Source: a virus. From it: DNA of 64,000 nucleotides. The stretch covers positions 1 through 64,000 of the IMG/VR virus record IMGVR_UViG_3300025576_000001. One strand, written 5' to 3'. Shown here in pieces: positions 4,236-25,527 of the stretch. The notes under the pieces are model-generated. The model did no database searches. It was not told the origin of the DNA and saw nothing but the letters and a program-made list of their open reading frames with translations. A program made the translations under genes and the position numbers. The stretch's first letter is position 1. Every line of letters starts with the position of its first letter.

Positions 4236-5083
4236 ACGACACACCTATCAGATGGACGAGTAACAGCTGGAACCCTTGCTCGGGCTGTGTGCCGGCGAGT
4301 GAGGGGTGCCATTTTTGCTATGCCCGCCAGCTCGCGGAGAACAAGCGCGGAACGCCAGCATTTCCAAACGGCTTCGACTTGACCCTGCGCCCGCACAAGC
4401 TCGACGAACCCCGCCGGCTCAAGACGCCGTCGCTGATTTTCGTCAACTCGATGTCTGACCTGTTCTGGGACCGCATCCCCGACAGCTACCGCGACCGCGT
4501 ACTTGACGTCATCGACTCGACACCACAGCACCAATACCAGGTGCTGACCAAGCGGCACGAGAACCTGTTGCGCTACTCGCGCCGGCGGAAGCTGCCCGCG
4601 AACTTCTGGGCGGGTGTGACGGTCGAGGACCAGAAGCGAGCCGACGAGCGAATCCCTGCGCTTGTCCAGGTCGACGTGCCAGTGCGGTTCATCTCGGTCG
4701 AGCCGGCGCTGTCGCTCGTGGACATCAGCCCCTGGACACGGGGCAAGAACAACGCCTTCGGCGGCGACGGCATCCAATGGGCCATCTGGGGCGGCGAGTC
4801 TGGCTGCCACCTCATGGACGCGAAGATTCGCGATGTCCGCGGGATGGCGACACGCGACGAGCGTGGCAAGTGGGTGCCACGCATGGACCGCGCAGACTGG
4901 CCGCGAGCCCTGCGAGATACCTGCATCCGCGACGGTGTGGCGTTCTTTTTCAAGCAGTGGGGTGGAGTGAGGCCGACCAGCGCCGGGCACGATCTGGATG
5001 GAAGACGCTGGGAGCAGTTCCCAGACGTGCGCGCGCAGGCCGTGACCGGCCACCGCTTGCAGCAGACCAGCCTGGCGGTGTAG
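4232..5083 (+). CDS. DUF5131 (phage Gp37/Gp68) radical-SAM-like protein
   Basis: WNPCSGCVPASEGCHFCYA, IFVNSMSDLF, LTKR, GGESG, FFFKQWGG signature motifs. Confidence 0.9.
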   Translation: MNDTPIRWTSNSWNPCSGCVPASEGCHFCYARQLAENKRGTPAFPNGFDLTLRPHKLDEPRRLKTPSLIFVNSMSDLFWDRIPDSYRDRVLDVIDSTPQHQYQVLTKRHENLLRYSRRRKLPANFWAGVTVEDQKRADERIPALVQVDVPVRFISVEPALSLVDISPWTRGKNNAFGGDGIQWAIWGGESGCHLMDAKIRDVRGMATRDERGKWVPRMDRADWPRALRDTCIRDGVAFFFKQWGGVRPTSAGHDLDGRRWEQFPDVRAQAVTGHRLQQTSLAV

Positions 5084-5093
5084 ACTACGGGGA

Positions 5094-5657
5094 GTGTCTG
5101 ACGACTCCCCTTTCCCCCCGAGCAAGCGCGGTAAGAACCCGCGCAGCCTGGGCAACCTGAGACCACGCCGCAAAGGAGATCCACCGCTCAACCCCACCGG
5201 CAGCAATGGACGCCAGCGCTCCGAGGTGATTGCCGCGTTTCTTGAAGAGAAGGACGACACGCCCATAGGCAAAGCGCTGATGGCGAAAGTCGGTTGTCCC
5301 GATGGGACGCGCATTCGCGGGCTGCTTTACCGAGAGTGGCTGGCAGGCATGGGCAAGAGCGACATGGCCCGCAAGACGCTGCTCGAACAGTACGGCGGGA
5401 AACCACGGGTGCAGATGGAGGTGTCCGGGCCGAACGGCGGTCCCATCAGCACCGATAACGTCTCAGCCATACTGTCACTCGAGGAGATGGCGGCGCGGTT
5501 TCTTCGGGCTACCCGCATCGCCCAGGAGGTGCTGGCGGCCGAGGCGGCTCCCCCGAAGGCCATCGACGCCATCGAGGTCGGGGCGCAGCCCGCAGCGCCG
5601 GCCGCTCCGCTGGCGCCCGGGCAGGTGCCGCTCGAGGCGATTCCGTGCCCCAGCTAG
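5094..5657 (+). CDS. putative terminase small subunit
   Basis: Directly upstream of TerL; SLGNLRP..KG..NPTG N-terminus and EVSGPNGGPI motif. Confidence 0.6.
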   Translation: MSDDSPFPPSKRGKNPRSLGNLRPRRKGDPPLNPTGSNGRQRSEVIAAFLEEKDDTPIGKALMAKVGCPDGTRIRGLLYREWLAGMGKSDMARKTLLEQYGGKPRVQMEVSGPNGGPISTDNVSAILSLEEMAARFLRATRIAQEVLAAEAAPPKAIDAIEVGAQPAAPAAPLAPGQVPLEAIPCPS

Positions 5658-7126
5658 CCTCCGCCGAACTCCGCGACCTCGAAACGGGCTACCGCAGTTC
5701 AGACGACACCCTGATGCGGCTGGCCCGGCGGTCCATGAAGGCGTTTTTCAGCTTCACGATGCGGGACGAGCAGACCGGCGCCCCCGTCGAGTTCGCGCCG
5801 ATCCATGAAACCTGGCACCGACTCGCCGACCAGTATGACCGTCTCATGCTGTGGGCCGCCATGGAAAGTGGCAAGACACAAAGCCTGAGCGTGGCTCGTA
5901 CGCTCTGGGAGCTGGGCCGCGACCCGACGTTGCGTTTCGCCATCATCAGCAACACGAGCGGCATGGCGGTCAAGATCGCGAACCAGATCGGGAAGTACAT
6001 CACGCAGTCGGAGGAACTGCACCGGGTGTTCCCGCACCTGGAGCCGGACCCCACGATGCCGTGGAACTCCGAGCAGCTCACGGTCAAGCGGCCCACGCTG
6101 TCGAAAGACCCCTCGGTCAACACGCTCGGCATCGGCAGCAACACGCAGGGCGCCCGCATCGACCGCGCCGTCCTGGACGACGTGCTGAATCGCGAGAACA
6201 CCCGGACCCAGTACATGCGGGACGAGTCGCAGGACTGGTATCTGAAGACCATCCCGGGCCGTATGACGGAGCGCGGGCGCATCCTCGGCGTCGGCAACGC
6301 CTGGAACCCGGACGACCTCTACCACCGGCTCGTCAAGAACCCGCGCTGGAAGGGCTACAAGTTCCCGATCTTGAAGGCCGACGGCACGAGCGCCTGGCCG
6401 ACTGTCTGGCCGCTCGACCGCATCGAACGCCGCCGGCAAGAACTCGGGCCGATGGAATCCATGAGCCAGTTGATGTGCCAGCCCATCGACGACGCCATGT
6501 CGCGGTTCAAGCGCGAGTGGATCGAGACGTGCTTGCGGCGCGGCGAAGGCAAGGACGTCGTCTACGCGCTTCGCGGAATCCCGTTCGGCTGCAAGCTCTA
6601 CTGCGGGGTCGACCTGGCGGTGGGCAGGAAAGAACACCACGACCGAACGGCGTTCTTCGTGCTGCTCATCCACCCCAACGGAGACCGGCAGGTGCTGTGG
6701 GTCGAGAGTGGCCGCATGCTCGCGACCGACATCATGGAGAAGGTCAAGGACCTGTCGCTGCGATTCGGCGGCATCTTCGTGATCGAGAACGTGGCGGCCC
6801 AGGACTACTTGGTGCAAATCCTCCAGGGCAGCACCGCGATCCCGATCGTCCCGTTCGCGACCGGCAAGAACAAGGCGGACCCCACGTTCGGTCTCGAAGC
6901 GATGGCGGCTGAGTTCGCGGCCGGCAAGTGGATAATCCCGAACCGCGGCGGCGTCTGCCACCCGGAAGTCCAGGAGTGGGTCAACGAAATGCTCGGTTAC
7001 AACCCAGCGGCGCACTCGGGCGATAGATTGATGGCTGCGTGGTTCGCCAAGGAAGGCGAGCGTCTCAGCGTCCCGGTTGCGAAGCCATACTGCGGAACCG
7101 TTCGCCTCAAACTCAACCCCTTGTGA
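5645..7126 (+). CDS. terL: terminase large subunit
   Basis: Walker A-like MESGKT, Walker B AVLDD, nuclease GVDLA and GDRLMA. Confidence 0.9.
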   Translation: MPQLASAELRDLETGYRSSDDTLMRLARRSMKAFFSFTMRDEQTGAPVEFAPIHETWHRLADQYDRLMLWAAMESGKTQSLSVARTLWELGRDPTLRFAIISNTSGMAVKIANQIGKYITQSEELHRVFPHLEPDPTMPWNSEQLTVKRPTLSKDPSVNTLGIGSNTQGARIDRAVLDDVLNRENTRTQYMRDESQDWYLKTIPGRMTERGRILGVGNAWNPDDLYHRLVKNPRWKGYKFPILKADGTSAWPTVWPLDRIERRRQELGPMESMSQLMCQPIDDAMSRFKREWIETCLRRGEGKDVVYALRGIPFGCKLYCGVDLAVGRKEHHDRTAFFVLLIHPNGDRQVLWVESGRMLATDIMEKVKDLSLRFGGIFVIENVAAQDYLVQILQGSTAIPIVPFATGKNKADPTFGLEAMAAEFAAGKWIIPNRGGVCHPEVQEWVNEMLGYNPAAHSGDRLMAAWFAKEGERLSVPVAKPYCGTVRLKLNPL

Positions 7127-7138
7127 TAGGATGCGCCC

Positions 7139-8827
7139 ATGGCGTCAGGCATAACTCGCGATATTGGAGCCGCCGGGCAAGTCGCCGGCGCGGTAGCGGA
7201 CCAGCAACTCGTCAACGAACGCATGAAGCGGTTGGGCTTGTCGCCGACGCAGGTGGAGTTGAACCGCCTCTACGCCTACTACCGAACCGCCCAGCACGAC
7301 GCCTGCGCGGTCGGCTGGGACGGCGATCCCCACGTGGACGCGGTCTCACGCGAGGGCATCTGCAGTTCGCCACTTCTGCCGGCCGGCTACGAGGACGTAG
7401 GCAAGAATCTCAGCAATCTGCCGCTGAAGTACCGCCGACCCGCGGTGCCATGCCACCTGTGCCACGTAATCGTGAGCCGCTTCACCGAGTTGCTGTTCAC
7501 GGAGTCGCAGTCGCCGGCGTGGAAGATGGCGGGCGATCCCGACAGCGAGTCGTGGGTCCAGGCCGTCACAAAGGACGGCGCCCTGTGGTCGACCATGACC
7601 CAGACGCGCGATCTGGGTGGCGCCATGGGGACCGGCATCCCGGGCTTCAAGATCATCGACAGCGTCGTGATGTTCGAGACCTTCGATCGGCGCTGGTGCT
7701 TCCCGACCTTCGATCCCGCGAAGCCTGGCCAGCTCTCGAAGCTGGAGATCCGCTACATGTACCCCAAGGAGAAGCGGAACCCCGAGACGGGCCAGTGGGA
7801 GGAGAAGAAATATTGGTATCGGCGGACCATCGACACCGAGGCGGATGTCCTGTGGAAACCGCAGGACGTGGGCGACGGTTCGACGGAGCCCAAGTGGGAC
7901 GACCCCACGACGGTCCAGCAGATGGTGAAGCACGGCTATGGCTTCGTGCCCATCGAGTGGATCCCGAATCTGCCGGTCAGCGACGACATCGACGGCGATC
8001 CGGACTGCCTGGGCTGCTACGACTACTTCGACCGTATCGGCGAACTGGACTCACAGTGCTACACGGGTGCGGCCCGCAACGCCGACCCGACACCCGTGCT
8101 GAGCAGTGACGGCATGTTCGAGCAGGTGAAGCTCGGCAGCGCCACGGCGGTCAAGACCGAGAAGGGCGGCAGCCTCGGGTACGCCGAGAGCACTGGCAGC
8201 AGCATCACGATCGCCTCCACGGAATCCGATCGTTTCCAGAAGAAGGCGCTGCAACTCGCCCGCTGCGTCCTGCCCGACGAAGAGGGCGCGGAGGTCCGAG
8301 GCGCCGTGACGGCCACAGAGATCAACAAGCGCACCGCCAGCATGCACGCCAAGGCGTCGCTGCTGCGCCAGCAGTACGGCCGCGGTGCCACGCTGCTGAT
8401 GCAGAAGTTGCTGGAGGTGGCGCGCAAGATGGGCAAAGGTCAGCAGGCCGCCGAGCCCATCAAGACCACGACCGGCCAGGAGATTCCGGCCGGCACGCTG
8501 GTGCGCTCCGAGATCAAGCTGCCGCCAAAGGTCGACAAGGAAGGCCATGCGCAACCCGAGCGGTTGGGCGACGTCCAGGGCGTGACGCTCGAACTGGTGT
8601 GGCCGCCATTCTCGCAGCCGACCGCCAGCGACACCCTCACGAAGACGCAGGCGACCGTCCAGGCCCGCGTCGGGCGGCTCATCTCGATCGACACGGCCGT
8701 GCGGCACCTGGCGCCTGACTTCAATATCGACGACACCAGCGCCGAGGTCGAAGCGCTCAAGAAGGAGCCGGCGCCCGGGGGAGACTTGGCGGCGCAATCG
8801 CTGAAGGAATTGCAAGAGGGTCGGTGA
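7139..8827 (+). CDS. portal protein
   Basis: 562 aa after TerL; HGYGFVPIEWIPN motif typical of SPP1-like portals. Confidence 0.8.
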   Translation: MASGITRDIGAAGQVAGAVADQQLVNERMKRLGLSPTQVELNRLYAYYRTAQHDACAVGWDGDPHVDAVSREGICSSPLLPAGYEDVGKNLSNLPLKYRRPAVPCHLCHVIVSRFTELLFTESQSPAWKMAGDPDSESWVQAVTKDGALWSTMTQTRDLGGAMGTGIPGFKIIDSVVMFETFDRRWCFPTFDPAKPGQLSKLEIRYMYPKEKRNPETGQWEEKKYWYRRTIDTEADVLWKPQDVGDGSTEPKWDDPTTVQQMVKHGYGFVPIEWIPNLPVSDDIDGDPDCLGCYDYFDRIGELDSQCYTGAARNADPTPVLSSDGMFEQVKLGSATAVKTEKGGSLGYAESTGSSITIASTESDRFQKKALQLARCVLPDEEGAEVRGAVTATEINKRTASMHAKASLLRQQYGRGATLLMQKLLEVARKMGKGQQAAEPIKTTTGQEIPAGTLVRSEIKLPPKVDKEGHAQPERLGDVQGVTLELVWPPFSQPTASDTLTKTQATVQARVGRLISIDTAVRHLAPDFNIDDTSAEVEALKKEPAPGGDLAAQSLKELQEGR

Positions 8828-8828
8828 G

Positions 8829-9971
8829 GTGAAAATCGCCGTAGACTTTGACGGCACGGTCGTCAAGCAGGACCGGCCCTACGCCGACGTCGTGACCCCG
8901 CTGGAGTTCGTCGACGGCGCCAAGGATGGCCTCCTGGCGCTCAAACGCGCGAACCATCTTCTTCTGCTCTGGAGTGGCCGCGCTTCCCGGGCGCTGCTCC
9001 TGGACCCCCTACTAGACCCCTTCGTCCGTGCCGGCGTCGTGGACTGCGACCGTCGTCACTGGCTCGAATCCAGGGCCATCCACCGGGCGCGCTACGACCA
9101 GATGATCGAGTTCGTCGAGAGAGAACTCCCTGGGGTCTTCGACGCGATCGACGACGGGCTTGCGGGAAAGTTCAGCTTCGATCTAGTCATCGACGATAAG
9201 GCCATGGCGATGCGAGGTCCCGCCACCTGGGCGCGAATCGCCCGCGTGTACGGCGAAACCGAACCCCTGTATGACGCCGCGGTGGCGAGCGGCCTACTGG
9301 ACCGCCCGGTCGAAAGCCTCAATCTTGTGCCACGTGGAACACTCCGGGCCGTCCTGGACCAGATCCACGGCGAGATGGTGGCGGCCGGCGTCGCGCACTA
9401 CTGGCCGACCTTCGAGCTGGGGCAGGCGGGTTTCTGGGCGGCCGACCGCGCCACGACCATCAACGTCCCGTGGTTTCTCGCCAACGACGAACTGCGGGCA
9501 CTGGCGCAGGAGCGCTACCCGTGGACCTGGGAGAACGTCACCAAGAGCATCCGGCACGAGGTCGGGCACTCGGTCGGGTATGCGTTCGAATTGTGGAAGC
9601 GCCCGGACTGGACGGCGGTGTTCGGCGACTTCCTGGCGCCATACCCGAAGTCACAGCCGGCGCCAGTGGATCCCGCCAGCACCGAGTGGGTCGACTACGT
9701 GCCCGGGGTCGAGGTAGGTTACTCGGCGCGGCACCCCGACGAGGCGTGGGCCGAGGCTTTCGGCTGCTGGCTAGATCCGTCCACCGACTGGCGGGAACGC
9801 TACCAGGCGGGCACGGGCGCGCGCCAGAAGCTCGATTACGTGGACGGCATCGCCAAGGACGTGCTGCGGGGCCTGCCGAGCAACTGGGACACTGGCAGTC
9901 CACGAAAACCACGTGCTGCTTATTCTGGACAAACGGTTAGGCAAGCACTAGGATTACCGTCCAGTGCATGA
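8829..9971 (+). CDS. HAD-like phosphatase domain fused to zinc metallopeptidase (Peptidase_Mx-like)
   Basis: IAVDFDGT, WSGR, VIDDK HAD motifs; HEVGH zincin plus YSARHPDEAWAEAF. Confidence 0.7.
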   Translation: MKIAVDFDGTVVKQDRPYADVVTPLEFVDGAKDGLLALKRANHLLLLWSGRASRALLLDPLLDPFVRAGVVDCDRRHWLESRAIHRARYDQMIEFVERELPGVFDAIDDGLAGKFSFDLVIDDKAMAMRGPATWARIARVYGETEPLYDAAVASGLLDRPVESLNLVPRGTLRAVLDQIHGEMVAAGVAHYWPTFELGQAGFWAADRATTINVPWFLANDELRALAQERYPWTWENVTKSIRHEVGHSVGYAFELWKRPDWTAVFGDFLAPYPKSQPAPVDPASTEWVDYVPGVEVGYSARHPDEAWAEAFGCWLDPSTDWRERYQAGTGARQKLDYVDGIAKDVLRGLPSNWDTGSPRKPRAAYSGQTVRQALGLPSSA

Positions 9972-10720
9972 AAAACCAAGAGTCACTTAAGACGCGCTTC
10001 TGGTCGAAGGTTAACAAAGAAGGCCCAGTTCCTATTCACGTTCCTGAACTTGGTCCGTGCTGGCTCTGGACAGGACACGTTACCGAAGATGGATATGGGC
10101 AGTTGCAAGTTGGGAGCAGGACGGATGGATCCCGACGGAAAGAACTAGCCCATCGGGTAGCGTGGTATTTTGCGCACGGACGGTGGCCGACCCCGTGTGG
10201 ATTGCACAAGTGCGACACCCGGGCCTGTGTGCGGTTGGAGCATATTTTTGAGGGGACGAACGCTGACAATGTGCGCGACCGCAATATCAAGCAGAGACAA
10301 TCGCGGGGAGAGGGCCGCCCAACGGCTAAACTGACCGAAGACAAAGCTCGCGAAATCATGCGCAGAAAGGCAGAGGGATGTACGACACGTGATCTGGCAA
10401 AAGAGTTCGGAGTCAGCAAAACCGTAGCCGCAAACGTCGGCCGTACCAGTTGGCTTCACGCTGCGGATCCCCAACTACTGCAGGGGATGGATAGATATAA
10501 GCGCCGTCGTGGCGCAGATCATAGTAATGCCAAGATCACAGAAGCGCAGGCCATGGAAATCCTCAGACGCAAAAAAGAAGGAGAGCGGAAGGCCACGCTA
10601 GCGCGCGAATTTGGCATCAGCGCCACCACGGTTGATCGCATCGGCAGAACGCAGTGGATTCATCTCCTTTCGAGACGAGACCACGCCGTTCCAACCGAAA
10701 CAAACACCTTGACACCATGA
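9968..10720 (+). CDS. HNH homing endonuclease with two C-terminal HTH repeats
   Basis: CWLWTG..GYG..AHRVAW..HKCDTRACVRLEH..GTNADN; two AKLTE..LAKEFGVS repeats; lower GC. Confidence 0.85.
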   Translation: MKNQESLKTRFWSKVNKEGPVPIHVPELGPCWLWTGHVTEDGYGQLQVGSRTDGSRRKELAHRVAWYFAHGRWPTPCGLHKCDTRACVRLEHIFEGTNADNVRDRNIKQRQSRGEGRPTAKLTEDKAREIMRRKAEGCTTRDLAKEFGVSKTVAANVGRTSWLHAADPQLLQGMDRYKRRRGADHSNAKITEAQAMEILRRKKEGERKATLAREFGISATTVDRIGRTQWIHLLSRRDHAVPTETNTLTP

Positions 10721-20456: not shown

Positions 20457-21875
20457 ATGGACTTCTCAGTCATTCAGCTAGATCCGACGATCCGAGCCCT
20501 CGTGCAAGACAACGCGCTCATCCGCGAGTTCAAGGACGCGCTGTACCCGCGCAACCTGTTCCGCAGTGAGGCCGCCCCGGTGTTGCAGCCGGGACAAGCC
20601 GGTGATCAGTTCATCTTCACCGGGAACGGCCTGATGGCGCCCTCCACCAATCCGCTGCCTCCAGGGAAGGAGCCCGAGCCGGTTTCGTTCGACAAGGAAC
20701 AGTGGAACATGCAGCTCCACCAGTACGCGAACCGCTGCCCCGACACCAGCATGCCGACCAGCATCGTGGCGATCGCGAATCTGTTCACCAACAACGTCCA
20801 CCAGCTCGGCCTGAACGCCGCGCAGTCGCTCAACCGCGTCGTGCGCGATCGGCTCTACAACGCCGGCATGAGCGGATGGACGGTCGCGAACGGCGCCACC
20901 GCCTCCGGGACCAGCCTCCCGGTCATGCGGCTCAACGGCTTCACGACCGCGCGGCGCCCAGACCTGACGGCCGGAAGCCCCGTGCAGTATTCGGCGGTGT
21001 CGTCCTCGAATCCGCTGCCGATCAGCTACATCGGCACCGATGGGAACGTTCACACGGTCAACGTCGTCAACTTCACGTCGCCATTCTCGGGCGACGTGGT
21101 CGGCCCCGGCACCCTCACGACCGACGTGAGTTTGCCGGCCGCGATCTCGAACCGTGGCGTGATCTGGAGCAACGACGCCACCTACATGGTGCGGAGCGGT
21201 GGCGGCAACGGCATCGACTCTCTGACGAGCACGACCAGCAACGGGTTTACGTTCGACCTGTTCCGCGCGGCCATCGGTCGCCTGGAAGACAGCAACGTGC
21301 CGAAGATGCCGGACGGCTTCTACCACAGCCACTTCAACAGCTACTCGAAGAACCAGCTTTTCAGCAGTGACGAGAGCCAGAAGCTCCTGACCTCGCTGCC
21401 TGACTACTACTGGTTCAAGGAGTTCGCGCTGGGCGACATCCTCGGAACCCTCGTGTTCCAGGACACCGAGACCCCGCGGTCCAGCACCGTGGCGGGCGGC
21501 ATCCAGAACGTCTACAACGGCGACGCCCGCAAGGGCGAGCAGTTCGGCGGCGAGATGTGGAACGCCAGCAAGCTGGAAGTCCAGCGCCCGATCTTCATCG
21601 GCGCCGAGGCGGTGTACGAGTACTACGCCGACCTGCGCGGCCTCATCACCGAGGCCGGGCTCAACGGCGAGGTGGGCGACTTCAGCCAGCTCACCAACAA
21701 CGGCGTGGAAGTCAACGCCGACCGCGTGCAGGTCTACCTGCGCGCCCCCGTGAACGTGATGGGCGACCTCGTGACCGGCATCTGGAAGACCATCATGGAC
21801 TGGCCCTGCAGGACCGACGGTGCGACCGGGGATACCGCTCGCTACAAGAGGATCTGCGTCGTCGAGCACGTCTAG
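20457..21875 (+). CDS. major capsid protein
   Basis: 472 aa after scaffold; strong RBS and codon bias; AAQSLNRVVRD backbone helix, LEDSNVP..DGFY. Confidence 0.8.
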   Translation: MDFSVIQLDPTIRALVQDNALIREFKDALYPRNLFRSEAAPVLQPGQAGDQFIFTGNGLMAPSTNPLPPGKEPEPVSFDKEQWNMQLHQYANRCPDTSMPTSIVAIANLFTNNVHQLGLNAAQSLNRVVRDRLYNAGMSGWTVANGATASGTSLPVMRLNGFTTARRPDLTAGSPVQYSAVSSSNPLPISYIGTDGNVHTVNVVNFTSPFSGDVVGPGTLTTDVSLPAAISNRGVIWSNDATYMVRSGGGNGIDSLTSTTSNGFTFDLFRAAIGRLEDSNVPKMPDGFYHSHFNSYSKNQLFSSDESQKLLTSLPDYYWFKEFALGDILGTLVFQDTETPRSSTVAGGIQNVYNGDARKGEQFGGEMWNASKLEVQRPIFIGAEAVYEYYADLRGLITEAGLNGEVGDFSQLTNNGVEVNADRVQVYLRAPVNVMGDLVTGIWKTIMDWPCRTDGATGDTARYKRICVVEHV

Positions 21876-21889
21876 TCACGTGCGCGACC

Positions 21890-22410
21890 TCGGGACCAAT
21901 CATGTTCGGACCAGGGACATGCTCGACACGAACGGCGACGGCGCCGTCGGGCATGTTCCTGTCGAGTTTGCCCTTCGGGGCAATTAAAGGGCCTGGGCTC
22001 TTTTTGAGCCGTAACCACTCGCGGTCGTGTCGCAGTGGTCTGGCCCGCCAGCGTGGTGGCGGCGCTTCGGCGCCTGCCCATACGAACGCGCTGGATAGCC
22101 GCACTTGTCGCCGGATGGTCGCGGATACGCGCTCGCTTGGTCTGGTCACTCAGCGAGAGCGCCCGCCTTTGATGGCGAACTCCAACGGGCCTCGTGCCTT
22201 GCTGGAGATGTTGTGCGGCGCTCGGGGAGCACGGAACCCTGCCTGTGGCATCGGAACCGCGATCCCCTCTGGCGGCCCCACTGCTAGTCGGTGGTCGGTG
22301 GCTTCGGCCATGACGTCGGACTCTCGCATGAGCAGAACCCATCGTCGTGGGACAAACGACGTATCTGCACGCGCCGGAGTTCAACGCCCCGCCTCTTTTC
22401 GACCAGCAGC
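21890..22410 (+). ncRNA. candidate large structured non-coding RNA
   Basis: ~545-nt gap with no credible ORF; many helices incl. 21912-21927/21946-21961 and three C(UUCG)G tetraloop hairpins. Confidence 0.6.
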
Positions 22411-22422
22411 AGGAGAGACCCC

Positions 22423-22806
22423 ATGAGCCTACTGAGCGACAAGGCAGCGCAGCGAGTCGCGGCGACCCGCAAGCCCGCCGAACCATCGAAGACGAGTGAG
22501 CCTGCGGCCCCAGCGGACCCGCTGGCCGACGTCGTGGTGTCGGCTGAGGAGTTCACGCGGTCCAAGACCGAGGGGCTGGACGTGGTCGTGGACCCGCCAC
22601 CCACGCCACCCCCTGCCGCCGAAGAACCGAAGGCCAAGGAGCAACCCAAGCCCACGCGCGTGCGGGTCCTGGAGCCCGGCAAGATCATGCTGGGCGGCTG
22701 CATGCAGCGATTCAAGCGCGGCGCCATTCTGGACCAGCGCCACTACGATCCCGAGCACTTCCGTCAGCTTCTGACGGTTCTCACGACGGAGCCGGTCACG
22801 GGGTAG
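22423..22806 (+). CDS. hypothetical virion-associated protein
   Basis: AGGAG RBS, MSLLSDK. Confidence 0.6.
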   Translation: MSLLSDKAAQRVAATRKPAEPSKTSEPAAPADPLADVVVSAEEFTRSKTEGLDVVVDPPPTPPPAAEEPKAKEQPKPTRVRVLEPGKIMLGGCMQRFKRGAILDQRHYDPEHFRQLLTVLTTEPVTG

Positions 22807-22807
22807 C

Positions 22808-23227
22808 ATGCTGAGCCCCGCCGAAAGAGTCCGGGTCAAGTACCACCTGGGGTATCCCTTGCTGTCTGCTGTCCCGGCGCTGAACGCCGGCATCCCGGTC
22901 TCGACCCCCATGTTGAGCATCGTGGATCTGGCGATGAACAGCCTTCTGCCCGACGGCGAGCCGATGGTGCGGGAGCAAATCGCCCGCTGCGACCAACTCG
23001 ACCAGGCCATCATCGACGCTCAGATCCGCATGCAGGTCAGCAAGGTCGACGGCGTGGAGATGCGGGAACACGAGACTGACCTCCTCGACGTGGAGTATGC
23101 GCGGCAAGCGGCGCGCCTATCGGACATCCTGCACGCCCCGTTCTATCCGTTCTCGACCCGCTACAGGTCGATGCAGCAGTTGGGGCTTGGTGGACGAGTT
23201 CAGACCGGCATGATCGGAGTCGCCTGA
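22808..23227 (+). CDS. putative head-tail adaptor
   Basis: Position; LSPAERVRVKYHLGY helical start. Confidence 0.55.
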   Translation: MLSPAERVRVKYHLGYPLLSAVPALNAGIPVSTPMLSIVDLAMNSLLPDGEPMVREQIARCDQLDQAIIDAQIRMQVSKVDGVEMREHETDLLDVEYARQAARLSDILHAPFYPFSTRYRSMQQLGLGGRVQTGMIGVA

Positions 23228-23622
23228 TGTCGATCCCATCGTTCGTCAAGCACTCGGGGGTCGCGGTCAGCCAGGACTGCTCGGGCGGCAACTTCGGCAT
23301 CGGCCCAATCGACACCAGCTTCGGCATCACGTGCGCGGCGCAAAAGAGCGGGCAGGACGACGTCGTGAACGCCACCAGCGGGTCGCCCCTGGTGCTCCCA
23401 CTGGAGAATGTCGCGAAGGTGCGGGTCCTCATCATCGCCGTCTCGGGCAACAGCGTGACGCTGCAACTGACGAGCGCCGCGGGCAACAACCAGGCGATCC
23501 CACTGAGCAGCGGCGGTATGCAGATTCACTTCGCGCCGACGGTGGGTGACGAGTTCACCGCCATTTCGATTGTCGGCAATGGCGCGACCGTCAATTACTT
23601 CATCGCGGGGGACCTGTCCTGA
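23227..23622 (+). CDS. putative virion structural protein
   Basis: Beta-rich, TGATG-coupled in neck region. Confidence 0.5.
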   Translation: MSIPSFVKHSGVAVSQDCSGGNFGIGPIDTSFGITCAAQKSGQDDVVNATSGSPLVLPLENVAKVRVLIIAVSGNSVTLQLTSAAGNNQAIPLSSGGMQIHFAPTVGDEFTAISIVGNGATVNYFIAGDLS

Positions 23623-24215
23623 TGCTGGCCGACCGCACGACCCCGAGCGACCCGCTGGCCGAAGCGCCGGCTCTGTCGGGGCAAGTGCATCCGGTGCCGG
23701 CCGGTCGGCGGACCCTCATGGAGTCGCTGGTGCCGGCAGTCGATCGCGCCCGTCAGACTCGCAACGACTTGGGGCTCGCGCCGTATCGCGTGTTCCTGGT
23801 TCACTGGCGCTGGCCCGGCAAGCGCGGCGTCGGACGGCCCGTCGAGACTTCGCGAGTCGAGATCCTGCCGACTCCCAGGGTCCAGGACATGCTCAGCACG
23901 TCCATGGGGCTGTCGGCATTCGGCATCACGGAAGCCGGCGGTCTGTTCGTCGATCGCATCAGCCCGCGATTCAGCGAAGCGGACCTGCGCGGCTTGACGC
24001 CAGACCTTCTGGACCCGGTGCGCCCGCAGACGATGAGCGGTCACGCCGAGTTCTTCTGGGAGGTGCGGGAGAGTCGCCGGACCAATCCGCCGACGAAGCC
24101 ACGGCGCTACACCGTGAGCGGCGTCCCGATGCTGGCCAAGGGCGGTCTTCAGTGGCGCGTGAATCTGGCGAAACAGGACACGTCGTTTGAAGTCGAGCCC
24201 GAGGTGGCGTCGTGA
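23622..24215 (+). CDS. putative head closure protein
   Basis: Position in neck module, beta-rich. Confidence 0.5.
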   Translation: MLADRTTPSDPLAEAPALSGQVHPVPAGRRTLMESLVPAVDRARQTRNDLGLAPYRVFLVHWRWPGKRGVGRPVETSRVEILPTPRVQDMLSTSMGLSAFGITEAGGLFVDRISPRFSEADLRGLTPDLLDPVRPQTMSGHAEFFWEVRESRRTNPPTKPRRYTVSGVPMLAKGGLQWRVNLAKQDTSFEVEPEVAS

Positions 24216-24826
24216 TTCGCACGGTCCACCTCCGGGATCTGGGCGGCTACGTGTCGCGCATCCCCAAGGAGCGCCACGCGGCGGCCGTGCGGGGAGTCCG
24301 CCGGTGTATGCGGCAGCGCGGGCGAGTCATCGTCAACGAGGAGATCAACGCCACGAAGCCCCGGCCGCCCGTCGACCGTCGCACCTACGCGAACTCCTGG
24401 GAGACGCTGGCGATCGAGAACGGTTGCCGCATCTACTCGACGGACCCCAAGGCGTCGATCGTGGACCGCGGCCGGCGCCCTGGCGCGGGCGTGAGCCGCG
24501 CCGGCATCGAGGCCCTGATGGGCTGGGTTCACCGGCATGGCATGGATACCGTGTCGGCTCCTGCCGCTCAGCGGGTCGCGCGCCAGCAGATGATGCAGCG
24601 GGCGCTGGGGATTCGCGCCATCACCAAGGCGGTCGCCAAACGTGAGCAAGTCGGCGCAGCGGCCCGTTCCATCGCCTACGCGATCGCGGGCGCCATCAAG
24701 AAGCGCGGTCTGTGGATGCCGAAGGGCCTACGGGTGTTCGAGCGCGCCAGCCGGAGGATCGTCGAAGAGTGCCGCGCGGCCGTCCACATGGCGATCGCGG
24801 GCGCCGAGTTCCAGGAGCGGCACTAA
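24212..24826 (+). CDS. neck protein (HK97 gp10-like)
   Basis: PVDRRTYANSW, GRRPG, AIAGAIKKRG motifs. Confidence 0.65.
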   Translation: MIRTVHLRDLGGYVSRIPKERHAAAVRGVRRCMRQRGRVIVNEEINATKPRPPVDRRTYANSWETLAIENGCRIYSTDPKASIVDRGRRPGAGVSRAGIEALMGWVHRHGMDTVSAPAAQRVARQQMMQRALGIRAITKAVAKREQVGAAARSIAYAIAGAIKKRGLWMPKGLRVFERASRRIVEECRAAVHMAIAGAEFQERH

Positions 24827-25527
24827 TGTACGCCTCCCAATACTCGACCTCGGCCACGATGGACGTGCGGGACGCCTGCGCGCTGGCGCTCTCTCGGGTC
24901 ATCGAGCGCATCGACACTATGATCGGCGGCCAGCGCATCAAGTTCAACCACGTGTTCGACGAGTGGCCGACCACACAGGATCAGTACGACCCACCGGCCG
25001 CGTGCATCGTGGCGCCTCCCGAGTGGGAATACTCCGACAGTGGCGAGCCGAAACTGCTGGAGGACACGGTTCAAAGCGTCGTGACCGCCACGACGGATCC
25101 ACCCTCCTATGGCCTCTACAAGACCGCCGAGATGCTCGACCAGTTCGGTCTGCAGATCCGGGCGGGCTCATCGGCCATGCGGTCCATGCTGAAGTTGGCC
25201 GTCGAGGATGCCTTCCAGCTTCGCGAAGCCGCCATGTACCCCGCGGGGCAGCGGTACGGCCTGCAGTTGCCGCTCCCCGAGTATTGGGGGATGACGGCTC
25301 GGGCCTCACTGCAGAAGGGCAGCAACACCGACTCGGAAGACGCGGCCATGCGAAACCAGCGTGAGGCCAGCTTCGTGATTTCCATGCAGGCCCCCAAGGT
25401 ACAGCTCATGGCCGTCTGGCCCATGAGCATCACTGTGACCGAAAAGACCCTCACCGGCGACGGGCGACTCATCAACAGCGCCAGCATCACGCCGACCTCC
25501 ACGCCTCCCACCATGACCAGGAGCTAG
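24826..25527 (+). CDS. putative tail terminator
   Basis: Immediately before sheath; EWP...PAACI pattern. Confidence 0.5.
   Translation: MYASQYSTSATMDVRDACALALSRVIERIDTMIGGQRIKFNHVFDEWPTTQDQYDPPAACIVAPPEWEYSDSGEPKLLEDTVQSVVTATTDPPSYGLYKTAEMLDQFGLQIRAGSSAMRSMLKLAVEDAFQLREAAMYPAGQRYGLQLPLPEYWGMTARASLQKGSNTDSEDAAMRNQREASFVISMQAPKVQLMAVWPMSITVTEKTLTGDGRLINSASITPTSTPPTMTRS

Follow-up and report, generated by a model that had tools for sequence, protein, structure and literature searches.

The window analysed here, that is, the whole stretch of 64,000 nucleotides, is the first 64 kb of a 76-kb virus record from IMG/VR (completeness ca. 95%) and has a G+C content of ca. 65%. Its major capsid gene lies downstream of a scaffold-like gene. 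The product matches the major head protein family phrog_1357 weakly, and its residues 8-471 can be aligned with the protein annotated as major capsid protein in Streptomyces phage Kromp, at 29% identity and with 98% of the length covered. The G+C content by codon position is.58/.45/.91 in the capsid gene and.72/.49/.84 in the 127-aa gene that comes next. The features of this part of the operon are as follows:

20457-21875, + strand, major capsid gene, 472 aa (phrog_1357 major head protein, E 1.9e-5, a weak match)
21902-22426, + strand, open frame of 174 codons (ATG 21902, TGA 22424-22426)
ca. 21905-22400, + strand, RNA element
22413-22806, + strand, next gene, 127 aa (Shine-Dalgarno GGAGAG 22413-22418, ATG 22423)
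22808-23227, gene of 139 aa, after the 127-aa gene

From the capsid stop to the start of the next gene there are 547 nt, a gap in which the A-T skew is reversed. Consensus scans found no promoter in the gap and called no terminator in or beside it. A preliminary description, made from the letters of the window alone, had proposed that the gap holds an uncharacterised, non-coding, multi-domain RNA that is co-expressed with the capsid protein.

We can confirm that the gap encodes a large folded RNA, ca. 490-500 nt long and with ca. 20 helices. Capsid-based scans of viral and metagenome contigs provided ca. 160 loci. Among these, 13 lineages have a capsid identity of at least 60% and contigs reaching far enough, and every one of them carries the element, with 63-82% identity to the copy in the window. 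It always follows directly on the capsid gene. When all viral contigs were scanned for its motifs, 34 contigs with one copy each were recovered, nearly all of them already known via the capsid, and the window likewise contains a single copy. The gap sequence gave no blastn match in a phage database. The element was found only in this phage clade.

The decisive evidence for the fold is comparative. In an alignment of 18 sequences from the 13 lineages (A3), RNAalifold returned 114 consensus pairs arranged in 21 helices, and 96.4% of the 2027 cells of these pairs are indeed paired, against 35-43% when the partners are slid by 1-3 columns. Double-sided changes were detected in 78 of the 114 pairs (14-23 in the slid controls), the covariation score was 0.445 (0.055-0.089 in the slid controls) and not one of 500 shuffles reached any of the observed measures. 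The covariation among homologues that had been suggested as a check is thus abundantly present. The copy in the window and that of a lineage 82% identical to it can be aligned over 508 nt without a single indel, with 19 compensated pairs and only one broken cell. The consensus pairs include 108 G-U or U-G cells and 10 A-C or C-A cells, an excess that identifies the RNA as the + strand; together with the conserved UUCG loops, this bears out the strand proposed in the preliminary description. For the + strand the minimum free energy has a z-score of -2.04, a stability that 5 of 100 shuffles equal, and the value of -4.34 on the - strand would be misleading as a guide to the strand. Folding energy by itself is weak, suggestive evidence here.

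Strong selection on the fold is evident from these comparisons. Identities of 68-82% for the element compare with 69-77% for the capsid gene, and the next gene is mostly unalignable as DNA. In other words, the nucleotide conservation of the element equals or exceeds that of the capsid gene, which speaks for selection at the nucleotide level. Besides, single-stranded motifs in junctions and loops have stayed invariant while the helices around them turned over, which is the pattern expected of a tertiary fold. The parts of the RNA are, from 5' to 3':

21905-21966, + strand, P1, long hairpin with a 16-bp lower stem (21912-21927/21946-21961)
21969-21982, + strand, P2, C(UUCG)G hairpin (helix 3; 100% paired, double changes in 3 of 5 pairs)
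21989-22046, + strand, three-way junction domain (helices 4-6; 96-100% paired, 9 double-change pairs)
22048-22094, + strand, helix CCAGCGUG/CGCGCUGG (helices 7-8; 99-100% paired, 10 double-change pairs)
22098-22219, + strand, central domain (helices 9-14; 82-97% paired, 24 double-change pairs)
22220-22270, + strand, variable region with a small hairpin at 22240-22250 (helix 15; 100% paired where present)
22271-22393, + strand, 3' domain (helices 16-21; 83-100% paired, 23 double-change pairs)
22394-22400, + strand, U-tract UCUUUUC (13 of 13 lineages and several distant matches)

P1 carries a 5' internal loop with an invariant CACG and an apical 4-bp stem (21934-21945). It is misaligned in A3, but its fold is identical in each of the 13 lineages despite completely different stem sequences. 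P2 is followed by a conserved A-rich linker (21983-21988). The three-way junction domain consists of a closing helix GGGCC/GGCCC, the hairpin 21996-22010, a conserved CGUAA and the hairpin 22014-22039, whose loop region is invariant. Helix CCAGCGUG/CGCGCUGG encloses a UUCG hairpin (22058-22078) and a conserved 3' bulge, CAUACGAA (22079-22086). The central domain is closed by the long-range 7-bp pairing GCCGCAC/GUGCGGC (22098-22104/22213-22219), inside which we find the helix 22108-22112/22174-22178, the hairpin 22180-22207 and an irregular hairpin (22123-22164) with the invariant loop UGGUC (22143-22147). The variable region, largely deleted in lineages L041/L042 and L026, contains the conserved GGAACCGCG (22253-22261). 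Finally, the 3' domain, closed by GGCGG/CCGCC (22271-22275/22389-22393), is made up of the hairpin 22278-22294, a UUCG hairpin (22298-22311) and a long helix (22314-22386) that ends in the hairpin 22343-22361. The U-tract lies directly 3' of the helix closing this branched domain of 113 nt, and the consensus scan does not call it an intrinsic terminator because the preceding helix closes a branched domain.

All the helices listed in the preliminary description exist where it placed them, and compensatory changes keep each of them: the long stem of P1, GGCTC/GAGCC (21996-22010), GCCGCAC/GTGCGGC, ACCACT/AGTGGT (22014-22039), CCAGCG/CGCTGG (22048-22094), CGTCGT/ACGACG (22343-22361) and the three C(UUCG)G hairpins (21969-21982, 22058-22078 and 22298-22311). 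Its multi-domain character is also borne out, as P1, the UUCG hairpin, the helix with the enclosed UUCG hairpin and the three helix-closed domains all covary. An H-type pseudoknot may form between CCC 22338-22340 and GGG 22349-22351, bases that are invariant and therefore show no covariation. Three long-range pseudoknots from a covariation scan (22045-22051/22269-22275, 22214-22218/22257-22261 and 22041-22045/22144-22148) were discarded, as they conflict with nested helices that have better support or show G-U changes only. Pairing of the invariant UGGUC loop with a GACCA in the 3' tail was also dropped, since GACCA or a near match occurs in only ca. 8 of the 13 lineages, and a hammerhead-like CUGAUGA core (22112-22118) was rejected because the motif is not conserved. 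The loop of hairpin 22278-22294 reads CUAG+N in nine lineages, AAUU+U in two, and UUAA+U and AUUUU in one lineage each. The resulting 4-nt palindrome in 12 of the 13 is the sole hint of self-assembly through loop contacts, and the number is not significant when the A/U-rich composition is allowed for.

The RNA does not belong to any family that we could search. With lax filters, the best Rfam 15 matches of a 546-nt stretch were chance-level miRNA and frameshift models (14-23 bits against gathering thresholds of 40-100), and a homologue (L033) gave only 9-12 bits; with these two homologues no family was matched at E up to 10. There was no covariance-model match to ROOL, GOLLD, OLE, HEARO, raiA, pRNA, RNase P, tmRNA, 6S, group I and II introns, riboswitches or small ribozymes, and ARAGORN found no tRNA or tmRNA gene in the whole window. 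The element is described in neither Rfam nor the literature that we searched, so that it was rightly called uncharacterised.

Beyond the 13 lineages the element fades. A model of its 5' half (R1) detected a shorter variant of 395 nt in L050, a locus with 52% capsid identity, in which the three-way junction domain is matched and P1 is absent. A covariance model of the 3' domain (R2) and a rebuild adding its first distant matches (R3) gave weaker matches in about a dozen loci of a sister clade with 45-52% capsid identity, all on the + strand, which makes the 3' domain the most widely conserved part of the element. Most of these matches end just 5' of the next gene, 270-540 nt past the capsid stop; in L073 and L129 (same contig) and in L163 they are located ca. 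850-1150 nt downstream. The GGAACCGCG motif of the variable region recurs in L050 and L056, and the region of L056 folds with z = -6.7 and has the GGAACCGC motif and the terminal hairpin. Other members of the sister clade (L055, L080, L087, L090 and L092) have only ca. 400-470 nt between the capsid gene and the homologue of the 139-aa gene, which leaves room for one small gene, so that the RNA must be absent from them. It follows that the RNA is not essential to this type of virion. A capsid profile search of genome contigs gave one match, a contig of an Acidimicrobiaceae MAG (49% identity); model R2 had no match in the genome of this MAG, and model R1 had none among 151 genomes of its phylum, negatives that apply to the genomes searched. 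With a capsid relative on this sole genome contig, these phages are not seen as common prophages.

One property of the element was not foreseen when the gap was called non-coding. The absence of a coding signature stands, but an open frame spans the gap from 21902 to 22426 and is conserved as an open frame. It starts with an ATG 26 nt past the capsid stop, and its TGA overlaps the ATG of the next gene. Every one of the 13 lineages keeps the homologous frame open; counted from the start codon it has 159-174 codons in 11 lineages and 131 and 139 in the remaining two, the longest stop-free run being 164-178 codons in 11 lineages and 136 and 144 in two. Over the alignment we counted three distinct stop sites in this frame, confined to its last fifth, but 18 and 25 in the two alternative frames, which contain 2-6 stops per lineage. 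Three or fewer of the 46 stop sites would fall in one frame by equal chance with p ca. 2e-5 (a binomial estimate from the counts). The start codon is ATG or GTG in 12 of 13 lineages, 16-29 nt past the capsid stop and ca. 10 nt before P1, at a fixed distance to P1 within surroundings that are not conserved and that show no consistent Shine-Dalgarno motif across lineages. The stop is found 0-8 nt past the U-tract, or in the ATGA at the start of the following gene, in nine of the 13 lineages. Of 11 sister-clade loci, five have a similar frame running the length of the RNA, and in the others it is broken. The phase of the frame relative to the capsid gene differs among lineages.

None of the usual marks of a protein accompany this frame. 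Codon periodicity is absent from the gap on either strand (column entropies.755/.758/.719), substitutions are distributed over the codon positions as 33/28/30, dN/dS is 0.95, no lower than in other frames, and the G+C content by position is.60/.70/.64, compared with a GC3 of.84-.91 in the neighbouring genes. The translations are rich in Arg, Ser, Cys and Gly, with conserved patches that mirror the RNA motifs. Among 5.8 billion proteins the relatives amount to two near-identical clusters, Pfam has no family for the product, and AlphaFold returned no secondary structure and no fold (pLDDT 49, pTM 0.11). A conserved ORF had been named beforehand as something that would speak against an RNA; a conserved frame is what we found, and yet without a coding signature, without relatives beyond two near copies and without a fold, from which we conclude that the element is not an ordinary gene. 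We further conclude that selection acts against stop codons and not on residues, a pattern to be expected where translation matters for its own sake; ribosomes probably run through the frame and thereby keep the downstream genes expressed.

The stretch is present in 20 public runs, of which six are metatranscriptomes. Four RNA runs from peat or wetland (X15-X18), filed under four studies, were examined as assembled contigs. In X15 the contig with the scaffold-like gene, the capsid gene and P1 has a depth of 82, short contigs at 21979-22166 reach 4862-10583, and the depth is 1921 for a contig at 22198-23052 and 25 for those past 23120. The corresponding depths for capsid gene, element and region beyond are 31, 255 and 6 in X16, 24, 718 and 9-12 in X17, and 44-62, 1266 and 19 in X18. 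In all four runs, then, the element contigs have 8-100 times the depth of the capsid-gene contigs, an excess over the capsid message that excludes contaminating DNA and fits a stable RNA, and the libraries contain the element together with the capsid gene, as co-expression would have it. These depths are contig means, in which the element and the adjoining message of the 127-aa and 139-aa genes are not separable and from which ends and strand cannot be read. The high mean of the contigs from 22075 or 22110 to 23052 or 23126 may come from their first 200-330 nt only, as the short contigs of X15 suggest. Reads of related phages could also have been captured by conserved blocks of 60 nt, and a remnant that resists decay would give the same depth picture as a functional product. 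Parts of the element are uncovered in some runs (for example 21924-22107 in X18), and such holes prove nothing. No splice joints were seen in the contigs of the four runs, and RNA contigs extend across the U-tract into the genes that follow. X15 contigs show adapter letters at 21979 and 22111, which were considered as RNA ends and set aside, since similar adapter ends occur on low-depth contigs.

The best reading of these results is that the element represents a large structured RNA of phages that forms a class of its own, hitherto unrecognised, and remains in the cell as a stable product. We tentatively favour a combined picture in which the folded RNA is a stable functional product and the frame serves as a ribosome track within the operon. 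The RNA would arise from the + strand within the late transcript of the capsid operon, and the folded form would be the product, outlasting the messenger as a stable species. Its 5' side would be set by processing at or after P1, and its 3' side by the closing helix and the U-tract. As the phage encodes no RNase III, any processing at P1 would need a host enzyme. By analogy with ROOL, GOLLD and the phi29 packaging RNA, it might act by binding a protein, or itself, when virions are built. Ribosomes that finish the capsid gene would start again 16-29 nt further on and pass through the fold while translating. Such ongoing translation would block the terminal helix and U-tract and expose no untranslated stretch, so that the neck and tail genes are reached, and it would also prevent Rho from stopping transcription early; transcripts that are not translated would fold into the stable RNA. 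The presence of the RNA inside an operon would be the reason why the start codon and the stop-free frame are kept.

A bolder version, which we regard as rather unlikely, would make this a dual-use locus, an ornate, tertiary-folded RNA doubling as a ribosome track in which translation chooses the fate of each transcript. One fate would be to read on into the neck and tail genes, and the other to fold, end at the U-tract and release the stable RNA, which would then take part in packaging or in the assembly of heads, or would itself assemble into a particle. Terminating capsid ribosomes would reuse the start, and the amount of RNA would thus be tied to the translation of the capsid.

There are other ways to account for such a locus. 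One that we consider possible, if doubtful, is that the element acts purely in cis, separating capsid and neck genes as a barrier to nucleases and as a branched attenuator or terminator, and that the abundant RNA is just the stable 3' end left over, which would do nothing by itself. Ribosomes translating the frame would melt the terminal helix and let the polymerase read on, and untranslated transcripts would terminate at the U-tract; the rationale would be that the capsid protein is needed in hundreds of copies and the neck proteins in a dozen. The fixed place directly after the capsid gene in every lineage would fit this well, as would the closing helix and U-tract, conserved even in distant variants, the frame that remains open through to the U-tract and the relatives without the RNA that join the same genes directly. 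The depth beyond 23120, lower than that of the capsid gene in each run (25/82, 6/31, 9-12/24 and 19/44-62), points the same way. However, a single hairpin would suffice for such a task, and relatives manage with none. Twenty helices, invariant junction and loop nucleotides and a conservation at least equal to that of the capsid gene exceed the needs of an attenuator, the capsid message is not stabilised alongside (it is 20-100 times lower), the scan detected no canonical terminator and the RNA contigs cross the U-tract. That the frame is instead a real, fast-evolving and disordered protein of ca. 19 kDa, for example a nucleic-acid-binding head protein overlaid with a regulatory or stability structure in the RNA, appears improbable to us. 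Its translations are very basic in all 13 lineages (pI 10-12, 9-13% Arg), the frame is kept open by selection with a conserved start, and its place among head genes is typical of small virion proteins. But a GC-rich RNA yields basic strings of Arg, Ser, Cys and Gly in any frame, and the conserved "residues" coincide with conserved RNA motifs. The dN/dS of 0.95, the lack of a third-position excess, the GC3 of.64, the lack of a consistent ribosome-binding site and the pLDDT of 49 without secondary structure all weigh against a protein; gene callers almost never call the frame (two clusters compared with at least 617 capsid relatives), and several distant variants keep the RNA with the frame broken.

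Least probable, in our judgement, is a catalytic or mobile RNA missed by Rfam, be it a degenerate group I or II intron, a self-cleaving ribozyme or an RNase P-like or tmRNA-like RNA. The size is that of large ribozymes, introns and small ribozymes abound in phage genomes, and a gene for a homing HNH endonuclease adjoins the element in L036 (3908-4444). That gene, however, lies outside the fold and in one lineage only, and neither Rfam 15, even at E up to 10 with lax filters and two homologues, nor ARAGORN provided a match. The element is located between a conserved stop and a ribosome-binding site and not within a gene, the capsid protein is complete compared with that of Kromp, and the RNA contigs are unspliced. 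A group I or II intron in particular was rejected, as the capsid is full-length with a conserved stop, the next gene has its own Shine-Dalgarno and ATG, and there are no joints. A search for the reverse transcriptase domain PF00078 in the 76-kb record gave no match, which disposes of a retroelement template and counts against a mobile RNA as well. We also rejected the idea that the fold occludes the ribosome-binding site of the next gene, because this start region is not consistently sequestered: its Shine-Dalgarno and AUG have unpaired probabilities of 0.25-0.78, which in the majority of the 11 lineages is close to the sequence average or higher, and the AUG is nearly fully paired in two of the 11. 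This speaks against a simple translational riboregulator. An extension of the capsid protein by -1 frameshifting (the frame is open from 21557) is excluded by the phase, which differs among lineages, and by the conserved ATG of the frame itself. A minus-strand gene (ORF 21872-22486, 204 aa) has no periodicity and a much less conserved frame, and is contradicted by the balance of G-U and A-C cells. The idea that the ORF hides the RNA from intergenic screens was abandoned, as the frame is almost never called as a gene.

Among known RNAs, the element would be a new class within the kind already recognised as large and ornate RNAs of phages, from which it stands out by its maintained open frame. 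Like ROOL (RF03087) and GOLLD (RF01998), it is phage-encoded, several hundred nt long and built of many covarying helices with conserved junctions and loops, it encodes no protein, and it is noticeable in RNA data. It differs from them in that there is no match in sequence or structure and in that it is located in a structural operon and carries a maintained frame; ROOL and GOLLD are often found near tRNA genes. The prohead RNA of phi29 (RF00044) is another structured RNA encoded by a phage, one that works with head proteins in assembly and packaging and forms rings via 4-bp loop-loop contacts. It is ca. 120-174 nt long and comes from a separate gene in the early region, whereas the present RNA is ca. 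three times larger, is an insert in a late operon and has no Rfam match. Cryo-EM has depicted ROOL and GOLLD as large ornate RNAs of phages and prophages, and these two and OLE as RNA-only assemblies (PMC12286853).

A structured RNA directly after the capsid gene, with a helix and U-tract at its 3' end, is reminiscent of the intrinsic terminator (T-phi) and the RNase III sites (R sites) behind the major capsid gene in T7-like phages. P1 resembles an RNase III substrate, and in both cases the ratio of capsid to downstream expression would be the likely target. Those sites are single hairpins of 30-60 nt, however, and here the fold has 490 nt and ca. 20 helices, the U-tract comes after a branched domain, the terminator scan calls none and the capsid message is not co-abundant. 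With trp-type attenuators and Rho polarity the element would share the principle that translation matters and not its product, a ribosome covering helix and U-tract, and as in nonsense polarity a premature stop would be polar on the downstream genes. Such polarity would explain selection against stops without selection on residues. Leader peptides, in contrast, have 14-30 codons and lie upstream of their operon, whereas here ca. 170 codons run in the middle of one through a tertiary-type fold, in which no alternative-hairpin logic was identified. A structured non-coding RNA with one stop-free frame has also been reported for the DRT2 defence system (summarised in bioRxiv 10.64898/2026.09.22.753630), which depends on a reverse transcriptase that makes concatemeric cDNA. 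The present phage record lacks a reverse transcriptase, and its frame has ordinary start and stop codons.

Known RNA classes of bacteria or phages that exceed ca. 400 nt and have complex conserved folds number, as far as we are aware, only about a dozen, and such large classes have tended to reveal new biochemistry. A large screen for structured viral RNAs reported motifs of up to 151 nt (PMC10690425), which suggests that elements of this size may be missed systematically. A stop-free frame in a covarying fold without protein constraint bears on how phages can insert an RNA gene in a translated operon without polarity. The comparative support for this element is unusually clean, it is highly abundant in peat and wetland RNA, and the uncultured phages that carry it are widespread in soils and sediments, their relatives having been sampled from peat, wetland, soil and sediment metagenomes.

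In the window, the sequence ACGAAC occurs in two conserved unpaired segments of the large folded RNA after the major capsid gene, which are putative twin binding sites:

21925-21933, plus strand: internal loop of P1, the long hairpin at the 5' end of the RNA; contains ACGAAC, and across the lineages (13, with at least 60% capsid identity) only CACG is invariant in it
22079-22086, plus strand: bulge beside the second UUCG hairpin; contains ACGAAC, and across the lineages only ACGAA is invariant

The covarying hairpin at 22278-22294 has a loop of 5 nt, which reads CUAG followed by U or A in nine lineages, UUAA followed by U in one, AAUU followed by U in two and AUUUU in the remaining one. A 4-nt palindrome is thus found in this loop in 12 of the 13, and its sequence hints at a loop-loop self-contact; among these lineages, the palindrome is not significant after allowing for the A/U-rich composition. 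Further downstream, the invariant CCC (22338-22340) and GGG (22349-22351) lie on either side of a 6-bp hairpin stem, which gives the region 22338-22361 a possible H-type pseudoknot layout in which the third loop would be A-rich. The two triplets show no covariation in the alignment, because their bases never vary, and the pattern CCC...GGG(A/U)UAA is also present in distant matches from the sister clade (45-52% capsid identity).

This sister clade provided 85 distinct post-capsid sequences that were very diverse, most of them being singletons that could not be aligned by blastn. Several are strongly structured (z = -6.7 for L056:3204-3665, one of the loci found through the capsid gene), and the structured ones, L056 among them, have only the 3' domain in common with the RNA of the window. 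Their 5' portions have apparently either been swapped or become too divergent to be recognized.

The minus strand holds a 204-aa ORF across the whole gap (21872-22486), and folds with a z-score of -4.34, better than the true (plus) strand. This antisense ORF is less well conserved between lineages (its longest open runs span 72-178 codons) and resembles the shadow ORF that commonly lies opposite an open frame in G+C-rich DNA.

The RNA is followed by a series of genes:

22423-25364: genes of 127, 139, 131, 197, 204 and 240 aa

None of them belongs to a Pfam or PHROG family, with the sole exception of 24212-24826, which gave a faint tail-completion/Neck1 match (E 0.039). In this phage group, the module that joins head to tail has next to no annotation.

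At 22108-22114, RNA contigs were broken in three metatranscriptome runs (X15 and X17 among them), two running on into >255 nt of unrelated sequence; co-occurring variant phages or chimeric assembly may account for these breaks.

One lineage has an insertion placed precisely in the interval from the capsid stop to the RNA, a 178-aa gene (L036:3908-4444, on a contig shared with L105) resembling HNH homing endonucleases by the HNH-type Cys/His motif recognized by eye in its translation. Its stop codon stands in place of the otherwise conserved ATG, and downstream of it the RNA fold and the open frame are both intact.
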